Assembly: GCA_044892525.1 (NCBI GenBank)
Contig: CM097887.1
Location: forward strand, 87,150,397 to 87,214,396
Length of the DNA: 64,000 nucleotides
Direction: 5' to 3'
From: Schmidtea polychroa
Taxonomy: Eukaryota
Shown: one piece after another, positions 1-41,214 of the stretch
Layout: every line of letters starts with the position of its first letter
Numbering within the stretch: the stretch's first letter is position 1
Translations under genes and position numbers: made by a program
Notes under the pieces: generated by a model
What the model was told of the DNA's origin: nothing
The model's database searches: none
The model's input: the letters and a program-made list of their open reading frames with translations, nothing else

Positions 1-627
1 TTTAAGCGGAGGGCCCGCAACTCAATCTGGTCTTGAGCATTCTGAAGTTGTAGTTGGGTGATTAACTTCATCTTCTTCTTCATCTCCGCTGGTGGGAACC
101 AGGTGCACTCGAAGTTCCGACAGTGGGCCTTGACTCGTGTCCACTTAGTCCGGTATTCGTCTACCTGTCGTTGTGCCTGTTCCCTATCGGCTCGCATCTC
201 TTCCAAGAGTTTCTGCACTAAACAAAGGTAAGATCAATGATTTTTACATCGACATCGAGGGTCGGGCATTATTATGGGCATTAAGGCTAAAAGAAAGTAA
301 TCCCCTCGTCGTAGTCCTTTGCTATGCGCACCCCAAGACCGAGACCTAGTTGTCTTACTCAACCTATAGGGTTGTTGTCGCTATAGAAATGTGTATTCAA
401 CAATGATGATAGTCCACGTCATGGACATTACAAACAATCCACACAATTAAATTGTCACCGACCATCAAGACACAAACAAACCTTAAATAATTATGATGAA
501 CTGTTAAGGCCTAACATATTTTATTCAATCCTGGATTAAAGAGGTTTAATCCAGTACATAATATCACCTAATACACCCGACACTAAGGTCAGCACAAAAT
601 GATTAGTTTTGATCCCGAGTTTTCCGC

Positions 628-1110
628 CTACTCTCCGAATCCCGCGCTCTCCTTGGTCGAGCGGGTGGACGTTCGCGCGCGTCCGCGTGTCCTTGGTCGT
701 CCTGGTCCTCGTTGAGGCCGTCTTGGGTATTTTAATCCACGCTGAAGAGCCGCGGTCCGTTTCGGGTGACATTGGGCTCGAGCGTAGCCGTCGCAGTCTT
801 CTACCTCGCCAGCCAGAGTCGCTTTCTCGAGCCGGTGTAATCGGTCTATCGCATCCGTCACTTCGTCAAAAGCGTCGATCAAGGCTAACGACGCGTGGTT
901 GAGGTACGGCTCCACCTTCGGAATTACGGGGATCACGTTCTGGTAAGTCCAATCATGGATCTTGTACCAGATCCATCTAGACCTTAGGCGAGCGATTTCC
1001 GATTCTTCCCTCAATCGGACGGCTTCATCTGCCTCTTCGCCGCTACCTCCGCGGTTCCAGTCAGTCGACGAGTGACCTTCTCGTATCTTCTTTGGTTCGG
1101 TACTGAGCAT
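628..1110 (-). CDS. LTR-encoded 160-aa ORF (3' LTR copy), unknown function, basic C-terminus
   Basis: ATG preceded by CTTTTATCATTACAG-CC; locally GC-richer; identical protein in both LTRs. Confidence 0.5.
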   Translation of the reverse strand: MLSTEPKKIREGHSSTDWNRGGSGEEADEAVRLREESEIARLRSRWIWYKIHDWTYQNVIPVIPKVEPYLNHASLALIDAFDEVTDAIDRLHRLEKATLAGEVEDCDGYARAQCHPKRTAALQRGLKYPRRPQRGPGRPRTRGRARTSTRSTKESAGFGE

Positions 1111-2629
1111 GGCTGTAATGATAAAAGAGGTATTAGGCGAATCTTTGTCCCTCTATCTGTGGTCGTTTACTCCAACATGTCTAAACCCCCCATTACGATT
1201 TACATCCAAGCATACTAGGCATTCAATCCCATAGACCAATGATTTTGTATGTGAAGTAGATTAAATTACTAATTAATTTCCATATTGATTTATTTATCCG
1301 ATTAGATCGCGGATTACTAAATTAAATTAAATTTGTACATTGACGGTTGGTAAGTAAATTAAATTTAAGACAAAGAAAAATTAAAATTTCGTAAATTAAA
1401 TTAAGACAAAAATTAGAATTTCGTAAATTAAATCAGAATCGCATATTTCAAAGATTTTGTTTAATTTGATTAAAAATTAAATTTGTTATTCTTAATGTCT
1501 AATATTCTTCAAATTTTGGTTTAACGATAATATGCAATTACTATGCTACTAAGACCTACTACGAGGAGGGACATTACTACATATCGAGAAATTTTACTCG
1601 GTCTCTAGTAATACCTAACCGTAAGGGTTGTGAGTAGCTCCACCATCATCCCAGTTGGATAAGTAAAAGGACAAAAAAAAATTGGTTAGTTTTCCATTTG
1701 TTTAATTTTAGGAATTCGATCCTTCCAGCTTTCAGTCTCAACGAGGGGTGTATTCGGATGAATTCTGCAACAGTCGTGGCCTAATAATAATCTAACGTAT
1801 GCCAATTCCCCCATTTGTGACGCATTTGTGCCCCAGATTATGGGTAACCCCATTCTCGTGTTTATGGATATACATGTGGGGGAATACAGGACAAAATGTT
1901 AATCTGAAGAGGATTTAGTGAGGCTTTCTGCTCATTCCTCTGTCTACATCGTTGTTAAGCATTTTGCGGTGACTGATAATCTTTCCTGTCTATAAGTATT
2001 ATAATTTTATTTAAAAAATAAAAATTTTGTTCTTATTAAATTTAATTGAATAACTCGCTTTAACGTTATGTAATAATTTTTATATGTTTTTGTCAATTGT
2101 TTTCTCTTACATTTACATAATCAACGATTGTAATCATAGGACCCATTACTACTCCTTACTTTTCGCCTATGATCATGAGGTATATGTGTCCTAGCTTGAA
2201 TGGTCGATGTGTGGGATCCATCTTGGGGAATAACAGGGTTAAATTCGCCAAGACATCGGGGTTTTAGTCAAGGATCAGGACTTCCGCTGTCGAGGCTGAT
2301 GGTGATTGGTTCGTTTGCGAACACGCATGCATCGTCCATTTGGTCGGTCAGGGTAATTTCAGTGAGGGCACCCCTTAGTATTCAGGGTTACTTCTATAAA
2401 TAGAACCAATTTTATTGGTTAGAGTTTTCATTAGGGAAAGAGCAATAATTGATGTCGGTTTTGAAGTTTTCTATTAATAGAAACATTTCAGAAAATCGAT
2501 ATATTGGTTGGAGTAAATATATATGGAACAAAGGGGGGTAGGATCATTGTAACTAAATTTAGACCTAGAGGAATCCCAAAGATCGCTAATTAAATAAAAA
2601 AAAATTTGTAATAATTAATTAATAACGCA

Positions 2630-3150
2630 ATGACAAGGGTAGTGATAATAATAGTGGCAATGATAAGAGTGGAAGTGTTAATGGTAATAGCGCTAAATCA
2701 GTAATATTAAGAACATTAATAATGATCATCCTAATAATAATAATAATGACAACAGTGATAGTAACTACAATAATAATCATAACAGTAATAATAATGATAA
2801 TTATTATAANNNNNNNNNNNNNNNNNNNNNNNNNNNNNNNNNNNNNNNNNNNNNNNNNNNNNNNNNNNNNNNNNNNNNNNNNNNNNNNNNNNNNNNNNNN
2901 NNNNNNNNNNNNNNNNNNNNNNNNNNNNNNNNNNNNNNNNNNNNNNNNNNNNTTAATAAGAATAANNNNNNNNNNNNNNNNNNNNNNNNNNNNNNNNNNN
3001 NNNNNNNNNNNNNNNNNNNNNNNNNNNNNNNNNNNNNNNNNNNNNNNNNNNNNNNNNNNNNNNNNNNNNNNNNNNNNNNNNNNNNNNNNNNNNNNNNNNN
3101 NNNNNNNNNNNNNNNNNATACTAATAACAATAAGGTAAATTATAATGATA
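2630..3150. repeat. AAT/ATA microsatellite inside 3' LTR, partly N-masked
   Basis: (AAT)n-like flanks around N runs. Confidence 0.85.
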
Positions 3151-5074
3151 ATAAGTGTGAGTTCATAGTATTATAAGATTACTACGGATGGGGGAATCGT
3201 TTACGGAAAGTTAAGGGTGTTGTTAAGGTACAAACAAAAAACATCTTTAAAGATTTTATATAAGGTAGATTTCAATATATATAAAGGTAAGAATGAACGT
3301 TTTCTAAATGATTTTAGTTTATCATAATATATCATTATATTGAATAAAATTATGAATAATATCAACAGGATTCATTAACATACTGAACAATAGTTTGTGC
3401 AATTAGCCGACTACGAGAGCCTCTGTATTAATTTGAGTCTGGGATATTTCCCGTTTAGATGATCCTAGTGGTCTGTTTCCTATATCAGAATTAAGTGTTG
3501 ATTTTTGGTATGTTGTTTACAGAAAAGTCGAGTTAATTAAAATTTTCCTACTTTCCCGACCCAACTGGATACGGTACGATAGGCCTTATTGTAGTATGTT
3601 TCCCGCGATTACTTTCCCGAAGTTTATTTCGTCCGCATAGTCCCTATGACTATGCCAACTACCGGTATGGGTTTACCGCCCTACTCCTGGTTAGAACCAT
3701 TAGTTCGTGGCGACCTCCGGTTAATAAAAGGGGTTTATATTTTATGCATGTGGGGTCGTAGACCCAAAAATGGTGCATGTAGTCTTTAAATTGGAAACAA
3801 GGCTGATCAACATAGTGACTATAACCCGTTCACAATGCTGGTCACTCTTATTTCGTGATAGTAAGATTAAACAAAACAAAAAAAAAAAAAAAAGTTGATC
3901 AATATAATGAAATGAAATCACAAATAATAAAATAACAATTATAAATTAAATAACAATCATGATAAAATTAATCAATCGTCCTTACAATTAGTGGGTTCCG
4001 AATTTTTCAAGAAAAATTTTGGCATAAAAAGATTAAATTGTGACTAAAATGCGTCGGTATATATACCTATTTTGTACACGTGTATGTATTGATGCATTAA
4101 AACAAACTCGAATTCTTTTTATTCCAGAAGTTTCTATTTTGTAATTTTGATATTTTTAATGGCGATTTTTGCGTCATAATTTTTATTTTTATTTTTAAAA
4201 TTTTATTTCCTAAATATTTTTTGCTAATTTTTCCTCCATGATGGATTTGGAACGGTTCCAGAACATTCCATATTACTTTTAATTCAATTTTTATTTTTAA
4301 CTGATATTTTACGAATTTCTTTTTAAGAAATTTTATTTTTAATACTAATTTATTTATTTTTCTAAATTTTATTGTTTAAGGTAGCTTTTATGATGGTCAT
4401 CGCCATTTTTATAGAATGTTCTGGGTTTTTCTGGAATGTTTTTGCTACTTTTACCATCTTTTAAGTTATTCGAGTTTGTTTTTTGTAACTCTGTGTTTAT
4501 TTGGCTATTTTGAGTTAGATTTTGCATAACTTCTTGCTTTTGTATAATTTTATTTAATTTCTGTGTTTTAGGTTTTTGTTGTTTTTTCCTTTAATTACTA
4601 TTGGTTATTTGGTGTAGTTTTCAATATTTAACTATACTTTTTGCTTTTTGCATGCTGTGTACCTACACATTTCGGTCACAATTAGAAGTTTGGGTCTAGA
4701 AATCAGTTCTAGCCCAACATAAAACACTCGGGGGCCCATAAAATTGCGACCCGCAATTTAAATCACAAGATGAAGAAAATTATTTTTCAGAATACTTGCA
4801 CTATATTACAAGTGCCTACATGCAAATTGGGTCTACGAGCTACAGGGTCGTGACCTCAATACCCACATACATAAAAAGGCTACTATTATACTACATTCTA
4901 CGGATGGGTTGAAAGATGAAGAAAAAGAACGACCGAGGTCGGTCCACATAAAAATAAAATTATCATGCTCAAGAATCAATGTTATTAGTCATAATCAGTC
5001 TCAGTCTTTGAAATCACGATTGTTTGTTAATGTTTTATAATGTCATGAAATGTTTATACTGTCGTGATGTCACA

Positions 5075-6061
5075 TTAATAGAATTCGGTTGTTCGGGATC
5101 TCGTCTCGATGACGGCTCTGGTTTCAATGTTTGGGGAAGATTTGAAGTAGCTTGGTTGGTTCGTTGTTTGGACTAGCTGTTCTTCCATTGGGATACGAAT
5201 ACTTCTTGATTGTTCTTTTAGTTTGAGGGTTTTGTTTCTTCCTTTACTGGAATTGGGTTTGAGTGCAATCAGGCTCAGTACGGTGATGTTTATCATTAGG
5301 CTCGCCGCTAATAGGATCAATATTTTGAGGGATTCAGACTCTCTCGGTTCTATTACTTTGGGTTTGTTCATAATTTCTTTTAATTGGGTTGTATCCGCCG
5401 TTTCTGATTTTTCGGGCTTATTGAATTTGTTTTCTTCTGAGGTGACAACTTTCTTTATTGCTTCTAGGGTTTTAATCATCTTCTCGGAGTTCGTTGGGTT
5501 TTTGTTTATGGTAGTTAGGATTTCCCTTGTCATTTCTTTCAAGGTTTTCGTTACCTCGTTTTTAATGCTGGGTTCCTCTTTGATGATGGAAGTTATTTTT
5601 CCTTTCATTTCCTCCAAAGATTTTACTACTATTTCGCAATTGCTTGAACGTCCATAGGCGGTTGCTGTTACCTGTTGTTTTATTTCCTCTAATATTATTA
5701 CCACCATTCTCATTGCGGCTGGATCTGTTTGGGATTCTCTCTTTGATTTCTGACTTTGACATTGTTTGGCTAATGTTGCTATCTGGGTTCTGATAACTTT
5801 CATTTCTTGTTCTAACATTGTTTTTATTGTCTGAGTCATTTGCACTTCCGTTGATCCTTCAGTTGTTGGTGGACATTGCGAACATTGCAACTTGATTTGT
5901 TCGCATTCCTCATTGGGTTTTTCGCAGATTGATTTAAAGCTACTACATGTGCTATCTTCTCTACGGTATGGGTATTCTTTTTGGCATCTGATCATTGATT
6001 CTTCTGCTTGCAGGGTTCTTGGCAATGCCATTATAATCATCACCACAATTAGGCTTCTCAT
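5075..6061 (-). CDS. Type I membrane protein with one TACI/BCMA-like Cys-rich domain (TNFR-like)
   Basis: Signal peptide, CQKEYPYRREDSTCSSFKSIC...C, helical stalk, TM LKILILLAASLMINITVLSLIAL, tail containing PMEE. Confidence 0.6.
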   Translation of the reverse strand: MRSLIVVMIIMALPRTLQAEESMIRCQKEYPYRREDSTCSSFKSICEKPNEECEQIKLQCSQCPPTTEGSTEVQMTQTIKTMLEQEMKVIRTQIATLAKQCQSQKSKRESQTDPAAMRMVVIILEEIKQQVTATAYGRSSNCEIVVKSLEEMKGKITSIIKEEPSIKNEVTKTLKEMTREILTTINKNPTNSEKMIKTLEAIKKVVTSEENKFNKPEKSETADTTQLKEIMNKPKVIEPRESESLKILILLAASLMINITVLSLIALKPNSSKGRNKTLKLKEQSRSIRIPMEEQLVQTTNQPSYFKSSPNIETRAVIETRSRTTEFY

Positions 6062-6145
6062 CTTTACATATATATATATATATATACTTTAATAATAATT
6101 ACTTGGCTTTATTTACAATTTATTTACACGGTTAGTTTGTCTCAT

Positions 6146-6913
6146 TTATTGGGAGTCACCGACCTCATCCCTTAATTTTACGGGAGGTTCAGGTGCTCGT
6201 CTTTTGCTCAACTCGTTCATTCTTATTACTTCGAGTTGGGTTGCTATCAACTGTCTCTTTAGTTCTGGTATTTCTTGTAATTGCTTCTCCTTACTTTTCC
6301 ATTTTCTCTGTTTGATGGTCATTGTCGTCTGCAGTGTTTGCATGCTTCGTCGTTTTTGATTTAAAATTCTCCGGTAATTTTCTTTCAACTTCCAATGTTT
6401 TTCTGTTTCCTCTCTTTGTTCCTTGATCTCTTCCTTGAGTTTTACATTTCTCTTCTCGACTTTTTTACTTTCTCGCACTATTGTTTTTGCATAAGCATAT
6501 TGTGCTTCCAACTGTTCGATATAGACTTGGTCGATATTCACAATCTTTTTCAACTTCCTTGTTTCTGATTTCCAATAATCTTCGATTACTGCCTGAGCTC
6601 TCAACTCTACTATCTCTTGTCTCAGGTTTTTATTTTCTGTCTCTTTTCGTTTCGATTCATTTATTTCCCTCAAAATTTCTTGCTTGACAGTGTTTATCAA
6701 TCGTCTTGATTGAACCATTTGCTGTCTCAATCTCGTAATCTCTACATTTTGATTTGCAATTTTTGTTTTGAACAGATTCTTGCTGACTCTCCATTTATTA
6801 CTATAATATTTCATTGGTTCTTGTTTCATTGGTATCATATCTTGGCTTTGTTCCGGTTGGTCGTTTGACTTTCTTTCGTTACTCGTTGATTCTCTTTCTT
6901 TTAAATAATTCAT
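6146..6913 (-). CDS. Coiled-coil accessory protein (~255 aa)
   Basis: K/E/Q-rich heptads with W-K motifs; likely ATG at 6913, preceded by TTTTTGTAG-AT. Confidence 0.7.
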   Translation of the reverse strand: MNYLKERESTSNERKSNDQPEQSQDMIPMKQEPMKYYSNKWRVSKNLFKTKIANQNVEITRLRQQMVQSRRLINTVKQEILREINESKRKETENKNLRQEIVELRAQAVIEDYWKSETRKLKKIVNIDQVYIEQLEAQYAYAKTIVRESKKVEKRNVKLKEEIKEQREETEKHWKLKENYRRILNQKRRSMQTLQTTMTIKQRKWKSKEKQLQEIPELKRQLIATQLEVIRMNELSKRRAPEPPVKLRDEVGDSQ

Positions 6914-7052
6914 ATCTACAAAAATATACACATCATATTTCCTTTCGTCTTCTTTTTATTTTGAATTTTTGGTTTTTGTAATTTTTTATTTGGTTTTGGT
7001 TTTGGTTTTTTTTTTTTTTTTTTTTTTATTTACAGGCAACATCTCTCCTCGA

Positions 7053-8651
7053 CTAAATCCATGTTGCGTTATTTGGTTCGTTATTTTCTTCGAAGCCTTC
7101 ATCATTTGTGACTTCGGCAGGCTGTGGCACTTGCAACGGGAACGGGTAGAGCGGCATTAATAATATTGGTGGTTGTCTCCTTAACCGATCTACTTCCTCC
7201 CGCAATTCCGTTGAGATGTTTATTTCTTCATCCAACAAAAACGTTAATCTACTTTCGTTTTCTATCATTTCGTCTAATTCCTCTTTCAATCGTTGGGTCC
7301 TTTCCAGCGCTTTTAGCTTCTCGATTTCTGCTCTCAGATTCGCTTCGTTTTCTTCGAAGCATCGTTTTATTATTTCTGTTTCCTGTTTGGCCTGTTGAAT
7401 TGCCTTATCGCACTCCTCTCTACATTTCGCATTAAGCTCAATCTGATGCTTCCAATTCACATCCCTTTGGGTGTACATACCTTTATATCCGTTCATCTCT
7501 TGATTGGCTTCCTCCACTTCTGTTTGTAATTGTCGGATCTGTCGATCTTGCTCTGTCAATTGTTGTTCCCATCTCTTTTCCTGGTATTCATACCTTCTTA
7601 TCTCTCGAGTCTGTTTCTTTATGACTCTCCGTCTACCGTCGCTGGTCCGCGTCTTGATTCTATGTTCTCTACTCAATCGGCTGATCTCATCCTTTTGGTT
7701 TTCTATCGTTTCCCACATTTTAAATTCGTCTCTTTCTATCAGTTTCATTGGTAACTGTCTTAACTCCTCTTTGGTCTCTTTCCAATTCTTTTTCCATTTT
7801 CGGGCTTGATGCTTGAGACATGTTTCGGTTTCCTCAAATTTCTGCTGTCGTTTTCTCCACTCTACTTCTTCTTCTTCTCGCTGTGTAGCCCTGGTTTCGT
7901 AAAATTCTTGGTCTGCTTTTCGTAATCGCAGTTGTTCCTTGCTACTGATTTTCCAATAGAGCACTTGAGTTTGACTTCCTAGGTATTTATACTTCCATTT
8001 CTGAGCTTGTATTTTTATTTGTGTATTAATTCGTTCTAATACGTTATCTTTAACAATTGGTTCTCTATGCGGTGTTCTCCTCCCTTGCCCTCTGACTTCG
8101 TTTAGGGTCTTTTTGCATCTTTCCCATCTTTCTTTCATCATTGCGCATTTGCCCTTTACTTCTTCTAGTTCGGCCTTGTAATTTTGTATTTGATGTTCGT
8201 GACTATCATTCTGCCTCGTTTGGAGGGTTTCGTATTTTCGTTTCCATTGTTGCGCTTGTAGTTTTATTCGTTCCGTTTTACGCTGTTCCTCCTCGTATTG
8301 CTCCTTTGCTTCTCTAATTTGTGTCTTCTGCATTATTATCTCTCCGCATAACCTAACTATCTCCATAATTCGCTGAGTTCGTAAATTCGAGAGCTCTTCC
8401 TCCAATTCTTGGTATGTTGAGGTATTTCTCACATCCTCGGTTAATTCCTCTACCTGTTTCATCCACTTCTCTTTTGTTGCTAGTGCTTCCGCCTTCTCCA
8501 CTTCTAATTCTTGTTGCTTTTTCTCATACATGGTTTTGTACATATCTATTTCTCTCTTTACTCTTTCTGCTTCGTAGGCTTGTATGATGGATTTGTACTG
8601 TTCGAGTTGTTGCATCTCGGTTTCCACATAGGTTTGTGATTCTTTATTCAT
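7053..8651 (-). CDS. Coiled-coil accessory protein (532 aa)
   Basis: Long intact ORF; repeated QAxxWKxKY motif; Pro-rich C-terminus. Confidence 0.8.
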   Translation of the reverse strand: MNKESQTYVETEMQQLEQYKSIIQAYEAERVKREIDMYKTMYEKKQQELEVEKAEALATKEKWMKQVEELTEDVRNTSTYQELEEELSNLRTQRIMEIVRLCGEIIMQKTQIREAKEQYEEEQRKTERIKLQAQQWKRKYETLQTRQNDSHEHQIQNYKAELEEVKGKCAMMKERWERCKKTLNEVRGQGRRTPHREPIVKDNVLERINTQIKIQAQKWKYKYLGSQTQVLYWKISSKEQLRLRKADQEFYETRATQREEEEVEWRKRQQKFEETETCLKHQARKWKKNWKETKEELRQLPMKLIERDEFKMWETIENQKDEISRLSREHRIKTRTSDGRRRVIKKQTREIRRYEYQEKRWEQQLTEQDRQIRQLQTEVEEANQEMNGYKGMYTQRDVNWKHQIELNAKCREECDKAIQQAKQETEIIKRCFEENEANLRAEIEKLKALERTQRLKEELDEMIENESRLTFLLDEEINISTELREEVDRLRRQPPILLMPLYPFPLQVPQPAEVTNDEGFEENNEPNNATWI

Positions 8652-8733
8652 TGTCTAAATAATTACACTATTACTACCACTATTATTTCATACATTTATT
8701 ATCTACACTTTATACACGGAATTTTAGTTTTTG

Positions 8734-9912
8734 TTATTGATCGGCGTAGCGAAATCCTTTGATTCCCTGCGCAATCCTCTGTCTGCACATCGGACATTCC
8801 TTTACTTTTCTACTACACGTGGCGCATGCGATCAAATGTCCGCATGGCATATGAATAACTTCTACACTCCTCTCCCAACACATAGTACATTTGATATCTC
8901 GTAAGATAGCTGTTTTGACCATTGATTCTTCTTTTATTTTTGTTTCTGGTTTTTCCCTATACTGAGTTATCGCTCTGATCATATCGTACGTTGTTGTTGA
9001 TATATGTACGTTTTTCTGTAGTCTCTCTCTAATCATTTTCTTTACCCTTGTCGTGCCTATTCCGGCTGCTTTCAACGCTCTGCGCATATTGGGCTTGTCT
9101 ACAACTTCGTCAACCTCTTCTTCTGTTACCAGTACTTCTGGATATTCGGTTTCTTGTTCGCTGCGATATAGGCACCATACTTGATGTCTAATTTCTGGTA
9201 TGCCTTCTTCCGGTAATCTCTGTTGGCTTTCGCACCTTTCACACTTGAGTATTTGCTTTTCTGTCAGGTAGAATCCTCTTATTGCTAGTTCAGGTCCTCT
9301 CGTATCATCTCCGAACGTTTTCATTCTATTATCTGCTATTTGCGTGAGGAATTCCCCTTCACAAGTTGGAACATACTCATCAACGATTTTGGTTATCGCG
9401 ATGCTCATTTTCCCTCCTTTTTCGTCTTCAGTTTTCAATTTCTCCAAGGCTTCGTATTTGATTTCCGGTTTGTTGTGTACATCAAATCCCAGTACGAATA
9501 GACAAGTTGGAAATCGTTTACGATGTTCCTCCTTTGGGTGTTCTCCTTTTTTCCATTCTACTAATTTCCCTTTACAGAAACGACACGTTACTTGATCGGG
9601 TATCTCTGGTTTTCCGGAGAAGAAAAATCCGTCGCGTGCTAGCGCTCGGCTCTGTTCCTTGGTGAAAATGGTCTGATGTTCAAATGACAGATATCTCTGG
9701 TTCTCACATCTGAATTGCTCATTATCTCCCAGTTTCAAATTTTCATGTACCAAATTATAATCATTTCCCATTCTTCGATAATACGCGTAACTACTTGGTT
9801 TTGTTTTGCTGACTTCCGCATCCTTCACTCTTTCTCTAGGTGACGTATTGTCCTCTTCCTCTCTCATTGTGATCGTTTTCTTTCGGATATTCGGTCTCTC
9901 TTGATTAATCAT
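8734..9912 (-). CDS. Inhibitor of apoptosis (IAP)-like protein: BIR, degenerate BIR, UBA-like, RING
   Basis: BIR motif GFFF..DQVTCRFC..W...H...FPTC; second CxxC..H..C; C-terminal RING CTMC..PCGH..CATC..CPMC. Confidence 0.9.
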   Translation of the reverse strand: MINQERPNIRKKTITMREEEDNTSPRERVKDAEVSKTKPSSYAYYRRMGNDYNLVHENLKLGDNEQFRCENQRYLSFEHQTIFTKEQSRALARDGFFFSGKPEIPDQVTCRFCKGKLVEWKKGEHPKEEHRKRFPTCLFVLGFDVHNKPEIKYEALEKLKTEDEKGGKMSIAITKIVDEYVPTCEGEFLTQIADNRMKTFGDDTRGPELAIRGFYLTEKQILKCERCESQQRLPEEGIPEIRHQVWCLYRSEQETEYPEVLVTEEEVDEVVDKPNMRRALKAAGIGTTRVKKMIRERLQKNVHISTTTYDMIRAITQYREKPETKIKEESMVKTAILRDIKCTMCWERSVEVIHMPCGHLIACATCSRKVKECPMCRQRIAQGIKGFRYADQ

Positions 9913-10052
9913 CTATAATAAATTTCATCATTTCTTTTTGCATTTTCTTTTTCTAATTTTTATGGTTTTGGTAAGTTACTTTACTGTATACAATAACTTT
10001 ATATTTACTTTACATCGTTTTTACAAAATATTTACAGTTCCCTTCTATCCGT

Positions 10053-11477
10053 CTATCGTATTTCTATTGTTGGTCCTTCCTCGTCTAGTTCGATTAGGAA
10101 GAATATAGTGTCCTTTTCTATGTAGGACCCGTCATTAAACTGGTATAGCTGCATAAACTCTGCTACTCCTACCGCAGGATTAACCTCTGTAATCGGTTTA
10201 TTCCATGCTGGACTTGATGCTCGACAGCACATTATATGTGTCTTTTTTGATCCCAAGAGAGATATTTTTAATCTATGTCGGAATGGCCATGCTATTAGGT
10301 CGTCAAAATCTCCTTTACAGATTTGCATATATATGGCCATGCACCGATCTTTAAACTTTCCCTCACCATTTGGAAACCATCTCAATTTCATCTTTTATCC
10401 ATGTTTCTTGGCGTAGAATGGTTTGCTCACTATCGTTGTCTGGATTCCTTGCTTTGCTCGCTCCATTATTTCTGTTATTCCTTGGATTTTCCACATATAT
10501 GGCAATATTGGTAGTTCCTCTGTTGTCAGTTCCTTTGCAGTCCATTTGGTTTGTAGTTTAGTTACTTCGACTAATTTGTCGTCTAATTTCAACATCCTTT
10601 GTCTTACGGCTTCTCTCGTATTTTTGAAGCTTTCCTGTGAGCTCAGCATTTCTTTTATCATGATTTTATGTGATTTGAGTTCGTCTTTAACATCTTCGAT
10701 TGCCCTTGCTGTTAACTCTATTGCTCTCATCATCTTTTGCATGTGCTCGAATGTATTCTCCTCCACATGCTTCTTCATTTCTTCTGCTGGTAATTGTACT
10801 CTACAATCGAATGTTACCATTGGGCATTTTATCGTCTTTCTCGTGCATATCTCCCAATGTTCATTTAATCTGACGTTGTTAATTTCTCCACACTCGTTTG
10901 GGCATCTCCCTGTATATTCGTCGCAAATCCGTCTTTCTACTGCGTTTCGATGTTCCATTTCGATTTCTCTCCAATTAGCAGTTTCTCCGCAAAATTCGCA
11001 TTTTTCCGTTCGCGCTTCGCATTCCCCTTTATGTTTGGTTTTCTCTTTTCGTAAAAACTTTACCGTACATGCTTCGCATTCCAATTCTAGATATTCGCAT
11101 ACGTCTGTATGGGCTCTTAACTCCTTTACTCGACCTGTCCATTCGCATGACCTTTGGGTGCATCTTATTTTCACTTCTCTGATTTCTCGGTTCATTGCTC
11201 TATCCGGTATCGTGCCAGTGGGAACCAACTTAAATGCTTCTCCACATCCTGGACAAGTTTCTCGCTTTAGCTTGGCTAATCTTATAGCACACCCTCGGCA
11301 TAATCTACACCCGCATCGAGTTTGACTTGCTCCAATCAGTAGTCTTCTACATGCTGCATCGGCACATAATAGTCTCTCTTCGAACTCGTCCGGCTTGGCT
11401 TGATATTTTCTCATCAATTCATAGTTAATCTTTTGTTCCTCTGTTTCTCTCCGGTTCTCTTCCGCTTTGTTTTGCAT
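10053..11477 (-). pseudogene. TRAF-like adaptor/E3 (RING, TRAF Zn fingers, coiled coil, MATH) with one in-frame TAA at 10395-10397
   Basis: Reads PFYAKKHG*KMKLRWFPNG, where TRAFs have PFY...GYKM.LR..PNG; both halves are in the same frame; the MATH has the DDLIAWPF motif. Confidence 0.9.
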
Positions 11478-11566
11478 TCTACAATGATGACTTTTAATCT
11501 TGGGATTTCTACTTGGTTATAACTCTATTTATTTACAGGATTATTTACATTTCACTCCTTTCTCTC

Positions 11567-12022
11567 CTATACATCTACCGTCGAGTCCGGTTCCCCAGTT
11601 CCTGGTAGCCCGGTCATCCATTCGACTAAACTGGCAATATCATCATGTTGTCGATTTTCGTGTAACCTTCTAATTTCTTCCGCTTGCCATCTGATTTGGC
11701 TTATTAACTGATTGTTATTGTATTCTAGTTGCGCGATTATTTGGTGTTGTTCCTCTATTTTTGTAATATATATTGCATTTCTATTAATACTCTCTATCAA
11801 CGCCGTTTGGTTTCGTACCCAGTGCTCTTGAGTCTGATTTGTCAATTGGGTCATTAATTCACACTGTGCCCTCCACATGGATCCTGTTGGCTGACTCGGC
11901 TGGTTTGGCACGTTCATTTCCATCATGTCTACTGGATGTACATTCATAAGCGGCTGTTCTCTTACTTCAACAACATGTGGTATCCCATTTGGGTGTTCTT
12001 GCTCTTCGTTTCTCTGGTTCAT
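11567..12022 (-). CDS. 151-aa accessory ORF, Q/N-rich with coiled coil, unknown function
   Basis: ATG ORF with the same flanking motifs as its neighbours. Confidence 0.65.
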   Translation of the reverse strand: MNQRNEEQEHPNGIPHVVEVREQPLMNVHPVDMMEMNVPNQPSQPTGSMWRAQCELMTQLTNQTQEHWVRNQTALIESINRNAIYITKIEEQHQIIAQLEYNNNQLISQIRWQAEEIRRLHENRQHDDIASLVEWMTGLPGTGEPDSTVDV

Positions 12023-12170
12023 TCCTATTTATAATACATGGTCATCATACTTGTTTTTGATTTTTCTACATATTGTTTTAATTTACTACTTTTATTTTGT
12101 ACATATTACTACTATTATCACTACTTTTATCATTTCATTTATACATTATTTACAACAACTCCTCCTCTCG

Positions 12171-25335: not shown

Positions 25336-26345
25336 ATCCTTGCTCTATAACATTCATTGCTCCAATGCCCTGATCGTTGGCATATGTTGCACGTTCGATT
25401 GTCGTTGTTCCTGAAATTATTAGTGAAATTTTGAATATTACCTCCATTGTCTTGGTTTCTCGTTTGTGGGGTTTTGAACAACTGTTGCGATCCTGGGATG
25501 AATTGATTCATTACTGGATTTGCATTATTGACTTGGTTGTTTGTGGTTGTTGTTGTTGTTGCTGGAGCTGCTGGAGCTGCTGTCATTGCTGCTACTTGTA
25601 TTGGTGTTAGGTAAGTTTCACATTTGTTGGCTATTTTTAGTGCTTCTTCTAGCGTCTCTGGTGCTCGACATCCCAAGGTTGCTCGTATATCTTCTCGTTT
25701 CATGCCATCTACGAATACGGCTATTATCTTGTCTTCCGGAACTGGCTGATTTGAATCGAAGGCTTCTCGTGCTAGTCGTCTCAATTCGCATGCGTACAGT
25801 GCGTTGGATTCGTTATATTTCTGCTTTCGATGCAGAAAGTCTAACATTTTTCGATTTCCCTCTTTTTCGGTACCGAATGTTTTTATTAAAAACTCCTTGA
25901 TCTCTTTCCACGTTCTCAACTTTGTTGCATCACATTTCGCCTCCAAGTATACATCTTGGGCGCTTCCCTTTAGATATAGGGGTATTCGTTCTCGTACGAC
26001 TATGTCTGGCCAGTGACATATCGTAATGTATACTTCAAATTCTTTTATAAATGTTTCTAGCTGGTTTATATTTCCATCGAATGGCTCTCCTCGAAATTTC
26101 TCTCTGAATTCTCCAATGTTGACGTGCACATTACTTGTTTCCGGTGGGTCCGTTACCCTTTGTTCATTCGTGTTTCCGTCCGACATTATCTCTTGGCACA
26201 GTACGGTTATCTCTGTTGTCTCGGATATATTTTCCTCTTCTTCAGTTGATTCGACGTCGCTTATTGGATCTAATTCGGTTCGTTTGAAATCGTCGCTGTT
26301 CTCAAATTCGTTAGTTAAACTGTCTGATTCAAATACTGTTTCCAC
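25230..26345 (-). CDS. gag: Gag (capsid plus two CCHC knuckles); true start uncertain
   Basis: PFDGN...FIKEFE...LYLKGSAQDVY capsid motif; CNICQRSGHWSNEC and CQKCGRRGHTENIC. Confidence 0.92.
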   Translation of the reverse strand: METVFESDSLTNEFENSDDFKRTELDPISDVESTEEEENISETTEITVLCQEIMSDGNTNEQRVTDPPETSNVHVNIGEFREKFRGEPFDGNINQLETFIKEFEVYITICHWPDIVVRERIPLYLKGSAQDVYLEAKCDATKLRTWKEIKEFLIKTFGTEKEGNRKMLDFLHRKQKYNESNALYACELRRLAREAFDSNQPVPEDKIIAVFVDGMKREDIRATLGCRAPETLEEALKIANKCETYLTPIQVAAMTAAPAAPATTTTTTNNQVNNANPVMNQFIPGSQQLFKTPQTRNQDNGGNIQNFTNNFRNNDNRTCNICQRSGHWSNECYRARMCQKCGRRGHTENICRGPTMPTIVTSLDTWQENAR

Positions 26346-27264: not shown

Positions 27265-27581
27265 TGAAGTCTTTTACGACTCCTCGACGCCTGGGCTTTT
27301 ACACCGTTACGCCATATAATCCATTATTACCCATCAACGCTTTGGTTTGTTGGACCTCCACGTCGGCATCGGCTTCCGACCGGTTTAATCATAATTTGAA
27401 GTCTTTTACGACTCCTCGACGCCTGGGCTTTTACACCATTACGCCATATTATCCATTGTTACCCATCAACGCTTTGGTTTGTTAGACCTCCACGTCGGCA
27501 TCGGCTTCCGACCGGTTTAATCATAATCTGAAGTCTTTTACGACTTCTCGACGTCTGGGCTTTTACACCATTACGCCATAT
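27265..27581. repeat. 132-bp tandem repeat, about 2.4 copies, in the 5' leader
   Basis: Units start at 27265, 27397 and 27529. Confidence 0.9.
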
Positions 27582-28994: not shown

Positions 28995-29477
28995 CTATGG
29001 GAGGTATACTACAACTCTTTTTCGAACGTTCGTATCGCATGCATTACATCGTTTTACTTTTTCTGCGCAATTCTCGCAGTAGCATAAATGGCCACAGGGT
29101 ATCATCATTACCCGTATTTCGTTGTTTCTACATATAAGGCATTTTCTAAAATCTTTAACTTGGTGTTCAATTGCTTCTCTGATTTCGTCTTCGATTGTTT
29201 CCATTTTTATCATTATCTCTTGCCATTTGATGTTAAACTTCGCATTATCCAATCGTAAATTTTGGATTTGGTAAACTCTTTCAGTAGTCAGTTCCGCATT
29301 GGGTGTTGCTATTCTCATCATAACACATACTTCCTCAGCTTGCGGTCTTGGTTTCAAGCTCAGTTCATCTTGGATTTTTAATAACTGGTCTGCTTTTCGA
29401 TTTAGTCGTTGTAGTGAATTGCTTGTCAAATTAACAAAGTTTTCGAGTTTCTTTACAATGTAGCCGGCTAATTCCAT
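28995..29477 (-). CDS. ORF upstream of gag: coiled coil plus IAP-type RING
   Basis: CLIC..MIPCGH..CENC..CNAC..VVVYLP at the C-terminus. Confidence 0.85.
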   Translation of the reverse strand: MELAGYIVKKLENFVNLTSNSLQRLNRKADQLLKIQDELSLKPRPQAEEVCVMMRIATPNAELTTERVYQIQNLRLDNAKFNIKWQEIMIKMETIEDEIREAIEHQVKDFRKCLICRNNEIRVMMIPCGHLCYCENCAEKVKRCNACDTNVRKRVVVYLP

Positions 29478-30188: not shown

Positions 30189-30206
30189 ATCCCGGCTGAG
30201 CCCCCA
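30189..30206 (-). promoter_or_regulatory. Primer binding site, tRNA-Pro
   Basis: Minus strand TGGGGGCTCAGCCGGGAT is complementary to a tRNA-Pro 3' end (ATCCCGG..GAGCCCCCA) and lies 4 nt from the LTR CA. Confidence 0.9.
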
Positions 30207-30536
30207 AATTTGTATGGTGGGTTACAGGTACTGTAAATCTTTTTACCTCCTCATGCTGTTTCCAGCGTAACCCAGTATACAATTCATAGCTGACCACTTG
30301 AAACCCGTTGAGCAATCAACGTTGGTACTGTATCAAGGGTTTGGGCACTAGCAAAAAGTGAGCATGCTTAACATACTATAATTGTCTAGCACCCACTGGG
30401 GTTCACGGACTGCCGTTAGAAGGCCTATGTCCGATTTCTTTTCGTCCCCGTTACAACAATTAACATTATAATAAAAGGAAATCAAAATGCCCGCTATGGA
30501 CGCACTGTGAAGATTTATTTTGACAACATGAATCGC

Positions 30537-31001
30537 TTATCGTGTGCTGGTCGGTTCTCTTGGCGTAGCCTCTGATTCAGTAGCATGGAGAGCTAATTGG
30601 GCCTGGCTGGCCTGCCTTATCCTCGCTCGTGCCGCTTTTCCCGGCCGAATCTTCTTCCTTGGGGTTACTATTGTGGGGGCAGGTTCCTTTGGTCGATGGA
30701 GCAACTCATCTAAAGGCCGGATCTTGGCAATGACCTCTCACTCCAGCTCCTGTTGATGCACCTTGGCTCCCAGTTCCCTCACCCTTAAGCGGAGGGCCCG
30801 CAACTCAATCTGGTCTTGAGCATTCTGAAGTTGTAGTTGGGTGATTAACTTCATCTTCTTCTTCATCTCCGCTGGTGGGAACCAGGTACACTCGAAGTTC
30901 CGACAGTGGGCCTTGACTCGTGTCCACTTAGTCCGGTATTCGTCTACCTGTCGTTGTGCCTGTTCCCTATCGGCTCGTATCTCTTCCAAGAGTTTCTGCA
31001 C
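30537..31001 (-). pseudogene. Second LTR-encoded coiled-coil ORF, 155 codons with one internal TGA (30738-30740)
   Basis: The frame stays open for about 66 codons past the TGA (EVIAKIRPLDELLHRPKEPAP...); no ATG; preceded by CTTTGTTTAG; partial copy at 1-218. Confidence 0.4.
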
Positions 31002-31410
31002 TAAACAAAGGTAAGATCAATGATTTTTACATCGACATCGAGGGTCGGGCATTATTATGGGCATTAAGGCTAAAAGAAAGTAATCTCCTCGTCGTAGTCC
31101 TTCGCTATGCGCACCCCAAGACCGAGACCTAGTTGTCTTACTCAACCTATAGGGTTGTTGTCGCTATAGAAATGTGTATTCAACAATGATGATAGTCCAC
31201 GTCATGGACATTACAAACAATCCACACAATTAAATTGTCACCGACCATCAAGACACAAACAAACCTTAAATAATTATGATGAACTGTTAAGGCCTAACAT
31301 ATTTTATTCAATCCTGGATTAAAGAGGTTTAATCCAGTACATAATATCACCTAATACACCCGACACTAAGGTCAGCACAAAATGATTAGTTTTGATCCCG
31401 AGTTTTCCGC

Positions 31411-31893
31411 CTACTCTCCGAATCCCGCGCTCTCCTTGGTCGAGCGGGTGGACGTTCGCGCGCGTCCGCGTGTCCTTGGTCGTCCTGGTCCTCGTTGAGG
31501 CCGTCTTGGGTATTTTAATCCACGCTGAAGAGCCGCGGTCCGTTTCGGGTGACATTGGGCTCGAGCGTAGCCGTCGCAGTCTTCTACCTCGCCAGCCAGA
31601 GTCGCTTTCTCGAGCCGGTGTAATCGGTCTATCGCATCCGTCACTTCGTCAAAAGCGTCGATCAAGGCTAACGACGCGTGGTTGAGGTACGGCTCCACCT
31701 TCGGAATTACGGGGATCACGTTCTGGTAAGTCCAATCATGGATCTTGTACCAGATCCATCTAGACCTTAGGCGAGCGATTTCCGATTCTTCCCTCAATCG
31801 GACGGCTTCATCTGCCTCTTCGCCGCTACCTCCGCGGTTCCAGTCAGTCGACGAGTGACCTTCTCGTATCTTCTTTGGTTCGGTACTGAGCAT
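31411..31893 (-). CDS. LTR-encoded 160-aa ORF (5' LTR copy)
   Basis: Identical to 628-1110. Confidence 0.5.
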   Translation of the reverse strand: MLSTEPKKIREGHSSTDWNRGGSGEEADEAVRLREESEIARLRSRWIWYKIHDWTYQNVIPVIPKVEPYLNHASLALIDAFDEVTDAIDRLHRLEKATLAGEVEDCDGYARAQCHPKRTAALQRGLKYPRRPQRGPGRPRTRGRARTSTRSTKESAGFGE

Positions 31894-33409
31894 GGCTGTA
31901 ATGATAAAAGAGGTATTAGGCGAATCTTTGTCCCTCTATCTGTGGTCGTTTACTCCAACATGTCTAAACCCCCCATTACGATTTACATCCAAGCATACTA
32001 GGCATTCAATCCCATAGACCAATGATTTTGTATGTGAAGTAGATTAAATTACTAATTAATTTCCATATTGATTTATTTATCCGATTAGATCGCGGATTAC
32101 TAAATTAAATTAAATTTGTACATTGACGGTTGGTAAGTAAATTAAATTTAAGACAAAGAAAAATTAAAATTTCGTAAATTAAATTAAGACAAAAATTAGA
32201 ATTTCGTAAATTAAATCAGAATCGCATATTTCAAAGATTTTGTTTAATTTGATTAAAAATTAAATTTGTTATTCTTAATGTCTAATATTCTTCAAATTTT
32301 GGTTTAACGATAATATGCAATTACTATGCTACTAAGACCTACTACGAGGAGGGACATTACTACATATCGAGAAATTTTACTCGGTCTCTAGTAATACCTA
32401 ACCGTAAGGGTTGTGAGTAGCTCCACCATCATCCCAGTTGGATAAGTAAAAGGACAAAAAAAAATTGGTTAGTTTTCCATTTGTTTAATTTTAGGAATTC
32501 GATCCTTCCAGCTTTCAGTCTCAACGAGGGGTGTATTCGGATGAATTCTGCAACAGTCGTGGCCTAATAATAATCTAACGTATGCCAATTCCCCCATTTG
32601 TGACGCATTTGTGCCCCAGATTATGGGTAACCCCATTCTCGTGTTTATGGATATACATGTGGGGGAATACAGGACAAAATGTTAATCTGAAGAGGATTTA
32701 GTGAGGCTTTCTGCTCATTCCTCTGTCTACATCGTTGTTAAGCATTTTGCGGTGACTGATAATCTTTCCTGTCTATAAGTATTATAATTTTATTTAAAAA
32801 ATAAAAATTTTGTTCTTATTAAATTTAATTGAATAACTCGCTTTAACGTTATGTAATAATTTTTATATGTTTTTGTCAATTGTTTTCTCTTACATTTACA
32901 TAATCAACGATTGTAATCATAGGACCCATTACTACTCCTTACTTTTCGCCTATGATCATGAGGTATATGTGTCCTAGCTTGAATGGTCGATGTGTGGGAT
33001 CCATCTTGGGGAATAACAGGGTTAAATTCGCCAAGACATCGGGGTTTTAGTCAAGGATCAGGACTTCCGCTGTCGAGGCTGATGGTGATTGGTTCGTTTG
33101 CGAACACGCATGCATCGTCCATTTGGTCGGTCAGGGTAATTTCAGTGAGGGCACCCCTTAGTATTCAGGGTTACTTCTATAAATAGAACCAATTTTATTG
33201 GTTAGAGTTTTCATTAGGGAAAGAGCAATAATTGATGTCGGTTTTGAAGTTTTCTATTAATAGAAACATTTCAGAAAATCGATATATTGGTTGGAGTAAA
33301 TTATATAAGGAACAAAGGGGGGTAGGATCATTGTAACTAAATTTAGACCTAGAGGAATCCCAAAGATCGCTAATTAAATAAAAAAAATTTGTAATAATTA
33401 ATTAATAAC

Positions 33410-33762
33410 GCAATGACAAGGGTAGTGATAATAATAGTGGCAATGATAAGAGTGGAAGTGTTAATGGTAATAGCGCTAAATCAGTAATATTAAGAACATT
33501 AATAATGATCATCCTAATAATAATAATAATGACAACAGTGATAGTAACTACAATAATAATCATAACAGTAATAATAATGATAATTATTATAANNNNNNNN
33601 NNNNNNNNNNNNNNNNNNNNNNNNNNNNNNNNNNNNNNNNNNNNNNNNNNNNNNNNNNNNNNNNNNNNNNNNNNNNNNNNNNNNNNNNNNNNNNNNNNNN
33701 NNNNNNNNNNNNNNNNNNNNNNNNNNNNNTTAATAAGAATAACCATAATAATAATGATTATG

Positions 33763-33795
<33 letters not shown>

Positions 33796-34110
33796 TTACT
33801 GATAATAATAATAATAATAATACTAATAATACAGTCATACCCCGGATAACGTTGCCCCGAATAAAGTTGTTTTGCTGTAACGTCGGTCCACCATGGTGAA
33901 AAAGGATCTTTTAAATCTATTTAATTGCGAATTTTTTTCTTAATTATAATTGCTTCGTATAACGTTGTTTCGGTTAACATCGCGTTTTTCTGGAACCATT
34001 TAACAACGTTAACCGGGGTATGACTGTAATAATAATAATAATGATAATAATCATAATAATGATAATGATAATATTGATAATACTAATAACAATAAGGTAA
34101 ATTATAATGA
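33410..34110. repeat. AAT microsatellite inside 5' LTR
   Basis: Counterpart of 2630-3150. Confidence 0.85.
33832..34026. mobile_element. 195-bp Tc1/mariner-pogo-type MITE inserted in the 5' LTR
   Basis: TIRs CAGTCATACCCCGG(A/T)TAACGTTG match at 22/23; TA on both flanks. Confidence 0.85.
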
Positions 34111-37100
34111 TAATAAATGTGAGTTCATAGTATTATAAGATTACTACGGATGGGGGAATCGTTTACGGAAAGTTAAGGGTGTTGTTAAGGTACAAACAAA
34201 AAACATCTTTAAAGATTTTATATAAGGTAGATTTCAATATATATAAAGGTAAGAATGAACGTTTTCTAAATGATTTTAGTTTATCATAATATATCATTAT
34301 ATTGAATAAAATTATGAATAATATCAACAGGATTCATTAACATACTGAACAATAGTTTGTGCAATTAGCCGACTACGAGAGCCTCTGTATTAATTTGAGT
34401 CTGGGATATTTCCCGTTTAGATGATCCTAGTGGTCTGTTTCCTATATCAGAATTAAGTGTTGATTTTTGGTATGTTGTTTACTGAAAAGTCGAGTTAATT
34501 AAAATTTTCCTACTTTCCCGACCCAACTGGATACGGTACGATAGGCCTTATTGTAGTATGTTTCCCGCGATTACTTTCCCGAAGTTTATTTCGTCCGCAT
34601 AGTCCCTATGACTATGCCAACTACCGGTATGGGTTTACCGCCCTACTCCTGGTTAGAACCATTAGTTCGTGGCGACCTCCGGTTAATAAAAGGGGTTTAT
34701 ATTTTATGCATGTGGGGTCGTAGACCCAAAAATGGTGCGTGTAGTCTTTAAATTGGAAACAAGGCTGATCAACATAGTGACTATAACCCGTTCACAATGC
34801 TGGTCACTCTTATTTCGTGATAGTAAGATTAAACAAAACAAAAAAAAAAAAAAAAAAGTTAATCAATATAATGAAATGAAATCACAAATAATAAAATAAC
34901 AATTATAAATTAAATAACAATCATGATAAAATTAATCAATCGTCCTTACAATTAGTGGGTTCCGAATTTTTCAAGAAAAATTTTGGCATAAAAAGATTAA
35001 ATTGTGACTAAAATGCGTCGGTATATATACCTATTTTGTACACGTGTATGTATTGATGCATTAAAACAAACTCGAATTCTTTTTATTCCAGAAGTTTCTA
35101 TTTTGTAATTTTGATATTTTTAATGGCGATTTTTGCGTCATAATTTTTATTTTTATTTTTAAAATTTTATTTCCTAAATATTTTTTGCTAATTTTTCCTC
35201 CATGATGGATTTGGAACGGTTCCAGAACATTCCATATTACTTTTAATTCAATTTTTATTTTTAACTGATATTTTACGAATTTCTTTTTAAGAAATTTTAT
35301 TTTTAATACTAATTTATTTATTTTTCTAAATTTCATTGTTTAAGGTAGCTTTTATGATGGTCATCGCCATTTTTATGGAATGTTCTGGGTTTTTCTGGAA
35401 TTTTTTTGCTACTTTTACCATCTTTTAAGTTATTCGAGTTTGTTTTTGTAACTCTGTGTTTATTTGGCTATTTTGAGTTAGATTTTGCATAACTTCTTGC
35501 TTTTGTATAATTTTATTTAATTTCTGTGTTTTAGGTTTTTGTTGTTTTTTCCTTTAATTACTATTGGTTATTTGGTGTAGTTTTCAATATTTAACTATAC
35601 TTTTTGCTTTTTGCATGCTGTGTACCTACACATTTCGGTCACAATTAGAAGTTTGGGTCTAGAAATCAGTTCTAGCCCAGCATAGATGACGAGGGACTAG
35701 CTTGTCCGTTATTCGTCTCATATTAGGCATGCCTGCGATGATAAGAGGAGTATTAAAGTATTTCATAACATACCTTCGTTTTTTCTTTTGGAGGTTATAT
35801 TAGCAAACGGCCAGAACAAATTCCAAGTTCCGAACCCTATATTAGACTTAATTTAAAGAGACGTTCTTTATCTTTTAACTTGGCAGTCTACATTATCCAA
35901 ATCAAGTCAAGGGAAAACTTTTGTTTCCGGACTATAAAAATTTAAATTAACAAACTTAGACCAGGGGGATCTTCATCGTTTTTAACTTCAAATATTAAGC
36001 TTCAAATTTAAGATTCATAATAATTTTCAGCGACACCAGTTTAAATTCACAAAAGATATATATATAAAAATTTGAACCAACGAAACCATCTTGTCATGTT
36101 ATGCAAATGCTAATTAAAAAATCAAATTCCCAAATTTAAGGTATTGTTTTAAATTATCAATTATATCAAGGAATTATTATGTCAACAAGCGGATAATTTA
36201 AGGCCATTTTTATTTCAATTATTAAGGCTTTATAATCATATGTGTGGTTTTCTACTGAAACCAATTGTATGGAACTGAATGGTAATGCTTGGAGCTTTAC
36301 CCAAACCACTTACCTTTCTTCTAATTACAATTATAGTAAGTGGAATTTTCGTCATAAAGTAAGTTTCGTTGCTAAAATTAAGATGATTTTCTAGGTATCT
36401 GTTATCAGTTAGCGTTTTGTTCATGAAAAATTAATATCTTCTACCGACAATGGAAATTTACCGGTCGATTAAATATGGTAGAGATTCAAGCTTTCAATGC
36501 CTAACTCAATTCAACCGGACTTAATAAACGAATCAACCTCTATTATATTCGGTTTCGGTCGAATGATATTCGTATACTATTCTGGGTAATTTATGCCCCA
36601 GATTGGAATTTCTCGAGAAGTTCAAAAATTTATTCTTCCCGTCTCGGTTTCGGTATAATGCACACGTGGAGAATCTTGGGTGATTTTGTTGGATATATTT
36701 GTCGTTTTCTACTAAACTGTTTATGTAGACCACCTAATATAATTTTTGATCTCCCCTTTTTCTGAGGAATTATTTGTTGGAATATATTTATCATCTTTTA
36801 TCTACAAACGGATAACAAAAAATTTTGGAACGGCTTTAGGAGTTATCTTCTTGGCATACATGACGGGTGTTGTATCTAGCGTCACTTCTCTATAGACCAG
36901 GGGTTCTTAACCTTTTCAAACTTATGCACCCCATAAATATATAATTGGTACCGACGGACCCCTGAAATGTTAAAAAATTAATAAATTGATAGTAAAACAC
37001 ATACATTTTTTAATAATTATTTATAAATCTGTTTATTCAGCTTCAAACAAAAATAATAAAGAGTAGTGTGGTTATATACCCAACCAAAACAGCCCCCCAA

Positions 37101-41186: not shown

Positions 41187-41214
41187 TCCAACCTGATGAT
41201 GACAGGAAAACTAT

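Follow-up and report, generated by a model that had tools for sequence, protein, structure and literature searches.

The window analysed here is a stretch of 64,000 bp from Schmidtea polychroa (assembly GCA_044892525.1, contig CM097887.1, positions 87,150,397 to 87,214,396), and its left part is made up of a single Ty3/Gypsy long terminal repeat (LTR) element of 36,251 bp. This copy of the element, young yet broken, is of the Burro/GYPSM1 type, which is giant, occurs in many copies and carries an envelope gene; the cargo genes are real, and purifying selection acts on every gene. All of its features lie on the minus strand, and coordinates are those of the window. The left edge of the element lies 569 bp before window base 1. 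LTR comparison delimited a 3′ LTR of 5,288 bp in all, of which positions 1–4719 are in the window and 569 bp to the left of it, and a 5′ LTR of 5,468 bp at 30215–35682. Both LTRs have TG...CA termini, and the element is flanked by a 4-bp target duplication; a second copy likewise has its own 4-bp duplication. Excluding stretches of N, the LTR pair shows 20 mismatches over ~4,980 aligned bases (99.6% alike), which indicates a young insertion. An 18-mer resembling a primer-binding site, presumably of the tRNA-Pro type, is located just after the 5′ LTR at 30189–30206.

The window copy is defective at three places. The polyprotein frame is broken near 25,230–25,344, separating gag from the rest, and at 16,105–16,205, and a stop codon is found within the open reading frame (ORF) for TRAF at 10,395–10,397. 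In the family frame, the polyprotein is encoded by a 4,791-codon ORF, which is open in 6 of the 150 scored MATH matches of the genome. Since other copies read through both polyprotein junctions in an unbroken frame, programmed frameshifting at these sites was rejected. An earlier note, made from the letters of the window, had described one ~36 kb Gypsy element carrying a set of genes for cell death and tumour necrosis factor (TNF) signalling. It was largely right as to the element, with its LTR pair and target duplication, and as to most of the domains; the TNF receptor (TNFR) label given to one product is unproven, and the copy is defective.

Genes of the polyprotein and accessory region

In the sense direction, a RING ORF in the leader is followed by gag, two ubiquitin-like (UBL) domains, a MATH domain, a third UBL domain, a Bcl-2-like domain, a fusion protein, protease, reverse transcriptase (RT) and RNase H, integrase, ankyrin repeats and a membrane protein. 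Six separate ORFs come after the polyprotein, predicting a 151-aa product, a TRAF, an IAP, two coiled-coil proteins and a 328-aa membrane protein. The family is thus composed of a polyprotein of ~4,800 aa and seven accessory genes beside it.

The gag gene (25230–26186) predicts a capsid and CCHC knuckles (Pfam Retrotrans_gag and zf-CCHC). UBL domains 1 and 2 (23377–24153) and 3 (21961–22176) were identified with a 10-sequence profile made of the three window repeats and seven from relatives, which matches ubiquitin, ISG15 and Rad23, with single domains reaching 1.5e-7. Between them, the MATH (TRAF-C) domain at 22549–22983 is recognised by Pfam (1.5e-28) and by PDB TRAF3 (1e-28). Pfam gave no match to the Bcl-2-like domain of the window (20950–21387). 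A 4-sequence profile of this domain found Bcl-2/Bcl-xL in 60 of the 60 matches listed, over the BH2 helix only and with E ~1e-3, and a relative of the element reaches Pfam Bcl-2 at 1e-4. The Bcl-2-like domain of the earlier note hence stands as a profile match over BH2, and a Bcl-2 identity is weakly supported.

The envelope gene, env (19036–20868), is in frame between the Bcl-2-like domain and the protease, at polyprotein aa ~1510–2100 with the protease at 2305. Its product is a predicted fusion glycoprotein of the chuvirus/mononegavirus type (Pfam PF24664 Monjiviricetes_fusion, 3.4e-66), in agreement with the fusogen recognised earlier, and hydropathy indicates a signal segment and a transmembrane (TM) segment. 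As to a class III (gB-like) fold, a PDB sequence search with Env was without match, its AlphaFold model (predicted local distance difference test score, pLDDT, 37) is unusable, and a fold search with that poor model was uninformative. Protease, RT and RNase H (16441–18432) were assigned by Pfam, and the best PDB match is the Ty3 RT (3e-88). A placement in Retroviridae was rejected on the PDB similarity ranking, in which gammaretroviral and foamy virus RTs reach only 1e-29 to 1e-32. The integrase (Pfam) is at 15216–16115 and the ankyrin repeats are at 14361–14624 (Pfam Ank_2, 3e-8). The polyprotein ends in a second putative surface protein (12174–13673) that hydropathy divides into a signal-like segment, a Cys-containing ectodomain, a TM segment (12,435–12,524) and a tail. 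This type-I membrane topology is consistent with the second surface protein named in the earlier note; a homologue search gave one marginal, repeat-driven match and the atlas of protein domains none usable, and the protein is assigned by topology only, without a known fold.

Immediately beyond the polyprotein is the 151-aa ORF (11567–12022), which belongs to no family and is strongly conserved. The adjacent TRAF gene (10053–11477), which is a 487-codon frame in other copies, predicts a full TRAF with a RING-like domain, zinc fingers, a coiled coil and a MATH domain (Pfam zf-TRAF and the second MATH of the element). The IAP gene (8734–9912) predicts a 392-aa protein with a BIR domain and a C-terminal RING (Pfam), for which the PDB matches are BIR and RING structures of NAIP, XIAP and cIAP; a homologue search found one homologue. 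Two coiled-coil ORFs without a family, of 532 aa (7053–8651) and ~255 aa (6146–6913), separate the IAP gene from the 328-aa ORF (5075–6061). The seventh accessory gene, in the 5′ leader (28995–29477), predicts a 160-aa IAP-type RING protein (Pfam, 8.7e-12). The TRAF, a second MATH, the IAP, a second IAP-type RING, the UBL domains and the ankyrins had all been named in the earlier note, and each was recovered here.

Conservation across copies and related families

The six copies compared from subfamily B (~96% identical) agree in the order of their six 3′ accessory ORFs, two of the copies having one shortened ORF each, and the leader RING is included in five of the six. Five B copies were each paired with the window to determine the ratio of nonsynonymous to synonymous substitution rates (dN/dS), which is 0.00–0.33 over all 23 regions and hence far below 1; one branch is common to all of these pairs, and the calculation used a fixed kappa of 2, observed transitions being more frequent. 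Values are lowest for the integrase (0.02), the 151-aa ORF (0.03) and RT and env (0.04 each), followed by the Bcl-2-like domain (0.10), TRAF (0.15–0.21), the leader RING (0.16), the IAP (0.18), the second surface protein (0.21), the 532-aa (0.23) and ~255-aa (0.27) coiled-coil ORFs and the 328-aa ORF (0.28). A frame-based check found a third-position excess with p<0.05 in seven of eight ORFs, the exception being the 328-aa ORF (6/6/14, p=0.085).

These data bear on whether the element is a one-off chimera, arose by misassembly or is captured host DNA that evolves neutrally. Such an origin would be in keeping with the three breaks of the window copy and with the resemblance of its TRAF to intronless, host-like TRAF genes (22–29% identity). 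However, the element has a target duplication and matching LTRs, and the same gene order is found in many copies. For one accessory ORF alone, the 328-aa ORF, there are 828 first-look candidates in the genome, and 118 of the 122 scored are without an internal stop, a share that is biased upward because the scored set comprises the best-scoring candidates. As other copies also carry the cargo and dN/dS is low in all 23 regions, the element is not a chimera; this origin is scarcely credible, and both the chimera and the neutral-cargo readings are refuted. Of the three refuting conditions named in the earlier note, which concerned recurrence of the accessory ORFs, dN/dS and transcription, the first two thus came out in favour of its reading.

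The intronless TRAF ORFs in the genome are full-length (454–487 aa), some are paired (loci L155-L160 and L199-L210), and most of their flanks are without an element-like cassette. They are the nearest relatives found of the element TRAF and MATH (22–46%). Many of the top-scoring MATH matches of the genome look host-type. A tree of 33 MATH sequences, with long branches, did not place either of the element's MATH domains, and no donor is claimed.

Several families in the same genome share the backbone of the element. Families C and D (L110-L111, L114-L115, L118-L119 and L123) are compact, with the order gag-UBL-UBL-Bcl-2-env-pol and env 34–36% identical, and after the integrase have a beta-rich type-I membrane protein that is complete in C and covered in part in D; MATH, TRAF and IAP were unmatched within the stretches fetched. 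Family F (L208, L212-L214 and G000:C2:35.885-35.916 Mb) is giant and high-copy, with 359 first-look candidates. Its RT is 78% identical, and it contains a leader RING (30% identical), TRAF, homologues of both coiled-coil ORFs, two ankyrin regions, a second membrane protein, Bcl-2 and UBL domains, and a positional counterpart of the 151-aa ORF, and is without the IAP and the polyprotein MATH. The last ORF of family F predicts a membrane protein with three ectodomain cysteines, in which similarity to the 328-aa ORF is undetectable. Database proteins P0003, P0004 and P0006 also have a fusion protein ahead of pol and a membrane protein at the end. Since it is common to families C, D and F and to these database relatives, the combination of env before pol with a second membrane protein is a feature of the clade, and similarity between the second surface protein and the same-slot proteins of families C, D and other relatives is not significant. 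The death and signalling cargo differs between families F, C, D and the window family, suggesting that it is modular, and the families of this one genome can be arranged in a series, with compact ones (UBL-Bcl-2-env) at one end and, at the other, a full load to which TRAF, IAP, RING and the receptor-like ORF are added. P0004 and P0006 are polyproteins of 3,108 aa and 4,844 aa that include several extra aspartyl-protease-like domains.

The membrane proteins are also relevant to an alternative in which the element is an intracellular retrotransposon without an infectious stage, using its envelope proteins and cargo for assembly, trafficking and escape from degradation within one cell. The element is known here from its genes alone, RING, UBL and MATH domains have general roles in the ubiquitin system, and the term 'errantivirus' as used in the relevant passages of an eLife survey (PMC13524379) implies no shared amplification mechanism, all of which accord with this alternative. 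However, Env is as constrained as RT and its signal and TM segments are kept, and a second membrane protein placed after the integrase is found again in distant relatives as well as in families C, D and F. Both findings would be difficult to account for if neither budding nor entry took place, and an element confined to one cell is considered quite unlikely.

Further features were observed within and beyond the element. At 4,720–4,745, ahead of the 3′ LTR, a purine-rich tract is absent and a GC-rich 12-mer shared with family F is found; its opposite strand resembles the primer-binding site. An ORF of ~160 aa lies inside the LTR (31,411–31,893, with a twin at 628–1,110), with an acceptor-like CAG just before the ATG. 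It is 58–86% identical in divergent LTRs and weakly conserved in family C, its GRP tail is presumably AT-hook-like, and it can be likened to the U3-region genes of complex retroviruses. The long 5′ leader contains tandem 132-bp repeats (27,265–27,581). Outside the element, inspection of 38,524–45,652 revealed Polinton/Maverick-like fragments (ATPase-like, rve integrase-like and DNA-polymerase-like), and a Tc1-like transposase piece (40,111–40,776) and a hAT-like piece (48,047–48,829) likewise do not belong to the element.

The 328-aa membrane protein

Hydropathy predicts that the 328-aa ORF encodes a single-pass type-I membrane protein with an extracellular N-terminus, consisting of a signal-like segment, a six-cysteine segment, a coiled stalk, one TM segment and a tail that includes PMEE. 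The earlier note had called it a TNFR-like receptor. The atlas rows listed for it are the cysteine-rich domains of TACI (0.78) and BCMA (0.76), which are leads only, as are all atlas scores below 0.9; shuffled proteins reach 0.8 one third of the time. Searches of Pfam, the PDB and the homologue database were without match, the Pfam TACI and BCMA models found nothing above cut-off in the genome and did not pick up this ORF, and its AlphaFold model (pLDDT 42) is unusable. The label was not confirmed, and a TNFR-like identity may be treated as a lead only.

The protein is central to a reading in which the cargo forms one integrated circuit. The 328-aa ORF would be a BCMA/TACI-like receptor mimic whose tail draws in the MATH/TRAF and IAP proteins that the element itself encodes, resulting in constant survival signalling of the kind produced by LMP1 of Epstein-Barr virus (EBV). 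In addition to the atlas leads and the type-I topology, several features are in keeping with this. All six cysteines are retained in 9 of 9 divergent copies covering the segment (the whole protein is 88–93% identical), and dN/dS for the cysteine segment alone is 0.09. The PMEE, which we take to be a TRAF2-binding motif type, is found in 7 of the 9 copies covering the tail, and the TRAF and IAP genes adjoin. However, the same four-letter motif type occurs three further times outside the tail, the third-position excess of the ORF is not significant, and the scores and database searches described above count against a receptor identity. Family F, moreover, has a TRAF and no IAP, and carries an unrelated three-cysteine membrane protein in the slot of the 328-aa ORF. 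A modelled complex of a polyprotein MATH trimer with the 57-aa tail scored 0.05, which gives no verdict and is evidence neither way. A circuit of this type is regarded as unlikely.

A broader reading makes the element an infectious retrovirus-like agent with two surface glycoproteins, one a fusogen and the other for attachment, a spliced RNA ladder, and a private TNF-receptor pathway composed of the BCMA/TACI-like mimic, TRAF, the MATH adaptor, the IAP, the RING ligase and the Bcl-2 homologue, by which infected cells would be kept alive. Taken as a whole, this is also doubtful.

Expression, proposed role and comparison with known systems

A TAG ending 0–3 nt before the ATG is found at six of the seven accessory starts, the 328-aa ORF having AAG instead. 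In the background, 40 of 680 ATGs are so preceded, and 0 of 20,000 shuffles reached six. The TAG is kept in 55 of 56 alignments of those six ORFs to other copies, and family F likewise has it ahead of its TRAF and of its counterpart to the 151-aa ORF. This location suggests that the accessory genes are likely to be expressed from spliced sub-genomic RNAs, which would be formed either in cis from the LTR leader or by spliced-leader trans-splicing.

TGTAAATA occurs seven times in the spacers of 82–148 nt (5,000 shuffles gave a mean of 0.12 and a maximum of 2). The motif was chosen after being seen and often overlaps AATAAA. Within 6,062–12,170, TGTAAATA is enriched right after stop codons; candidate readings of it are a poly(A) signal of the type UGUA+AAUAAA, a Pumilio site and a forkhead site. 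Contigs of three sequencing runs cover 30, 30 and 28 of 30 bins of the element, and poly-T loose ends occur at four places in one run; the RNA status of these runs is a guess, and neither observation was used as evidence. A single contig of run X5 links 10,013 to the first ~120 nt of the LTR, at a site that is not a canonical acceptor. Two runs from two studies (X1 and X2) include contigs in which element pieces (9,942–10,982 and 22,925–23,842) are embedded in unrelated sequence, possibly resembling PIWI-interacting RNA (piRNA) clusters or representing host loci that have taken up pieces of TRAF and UBL/MATH.

The interpretation preferred here, and considered reasonably probable, is that this is an enveloped element, probably transmitted from cell to cell, with captured and selected cargo that either protects the producer cell or quiets it. 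Cleavage of the polyprotein by the protease and by signal peptidase would yield Gag, cargo, Env, the enzymes and the second membrane protein, and the element would be likely to spread between cells as enveloped particles. The IAP, Bcl-2-like, TRAF/MATH, RING and UBL products would be expected to keep the producer alive or to quiet stress and immune signalling. The cargo would be better described as a modular captured toolkit than as a single receptor-to-IAP circuit of fixed composition. In S. mediterranea, BURRO1 is intestine-enriched after RNA interference of smedwi-2, and highly expressed transposons are outside neoblasts only, with neoblast expression appearing in a triple PIWI knock-down (PMC8532177, relevant passages). 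For this reason, the producers are more likely to be somatic (gut) cells than the stem or germ cells offered as an example in the earlier note, which are not favoured, and the envelope would serve to reach dividing stem cells. In Drosophila, the gypsy element moves from the soma to the germ line.

A number of points weigh against enveloped transmission with protective cargo. Infectivity and host-cell protection, though likely, are predictions for an element known through its genes, and selection shows that the proteins aid replication of the element and not how they do so. TRAF, RING and UBL products could instead have a part in budding or in the degradation of restriction factors, and the Bcl-2 match is confined to the BH2 helix. 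The gut expression is that of BURRO1 of S. mediterranea under PIWI knock-down and not of the window element. No spliced or leader junction was found at the acceptors among the loose ends listed (19 of 37 and 24 of 744), and the dN/dS values are somewhat low, as transitions occur more often than the kappa of 2 assumes.

A large part of planarian genomes consists of Burro elements. Section 7 of PMC6431247 describes Burro1/GYPSM1 of S. mediterranea, traced there to Jurka 2007 and Grohme 2018, with an ORF1 of 4,873 aa that includes three knuckles, MATH_TRAF_C, Ubi/SUMO and BCL2, env between BCL2 and the protease, and in addition BIR, ankyrins and accessory ORFs. The window element is likewise >30 kb and high-copy, with multi-kb LTRs, an internal region near 25 kb and one ORF of ~4,800 aa (the 4,791-codon frame here). 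It also shares the Gag with three knuckles, MATH, Ubi/SUMO-like and BCL2 domains, env before the protease, ankyrins, BIR and coiled-coil (Smc-like) ORFs. A dUTPase-like domain, published between the protease and RT on the basis of HHpred, was not matched by Pfam in 17,785–18,144. Apart from this domain, each feature of architecture and domain content that could be compared places the element with Burro, in line with the mention of giant Burro elements in the earlier note. The same 2019 review proposed that Burro elements are integrated proviruses and that their cargo meddles with host apoptosis and ubiquitination. Given that it already includes the layout, most of the cargo and these ideas, the novelty claimed earlier for the integrated system was overstated.

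Section 7 of the review makes no mention of a TNFR-like ORF, a membrane protein after the integrase, a separate full set of TRAF, IAP and RING genes, selection data or splice-acceptor-like signals. The literature search did not find the receptor-like ORF or the second membrane protein in print, though Grohme 2018 or Repbase may list accessory ORFs, nor gene-by-gene selection, the family series or the acceptor signals, on which figures of Grohme 2018 and Jurka 2007 may bear. The role of the apoptosis and ubiquitin cargo stayed an idea in the passages of the review concerned (PMC6431247), and selection on every cargo gene together with the cargo series makes it testable gene by gene. Element-borne MATH domains may also inflate the planarian TRAF expansion reported in PMC6109357 (relevant passages).

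The Burro-like element that section 7 of PMC6431247 describes for Dugesia tigrina has the same backbone and a layout resembling family F, which is also without a polyprotein MATH and has TRAF as an accessory ORF. The window family differs from it in having the polyprotein MATH together with accessory TRAF and IAP genes. Six S. mediterranea elements with the order GAG-ENV-POL and a gB-type env were reported in 2026 (PMC13524379), and the window element shares gene order, LTRs and many near-identical copies with these errantiviruses. Number 6, the longest of the six entries, has the same gene order, and ~44 of 63 residues of its env match the window env when counted by eye; sequence identity of ~70%, also by eye, indicates a relative and not the same family. 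'Burro' is absent from the main text of that survey, and its relevant passages do not treat accessory cargo.

Cargo directed at apoptosis and the TNF pathway is known from large DNA viruses. It includes the IAPs of baculoviruses, the viral Bcl-2 proteins of herpesviruses and poxviruses, and LMP1 of EBV. Should the 328-aa ORF prove to be a TNFR mimic, a complete signalling pathway of the type found in these viruses would be present on an LTR element. By analogy of function, the captured IAP, Bcl-2-fold and TRAF-pathway proteins of the window element would work like the DNA-virus cargo. Unlike the large DNA viruses, however, it is an LTR element with RT and integrase, and the nearest relatives found of its TRAF are genes of the same genome.

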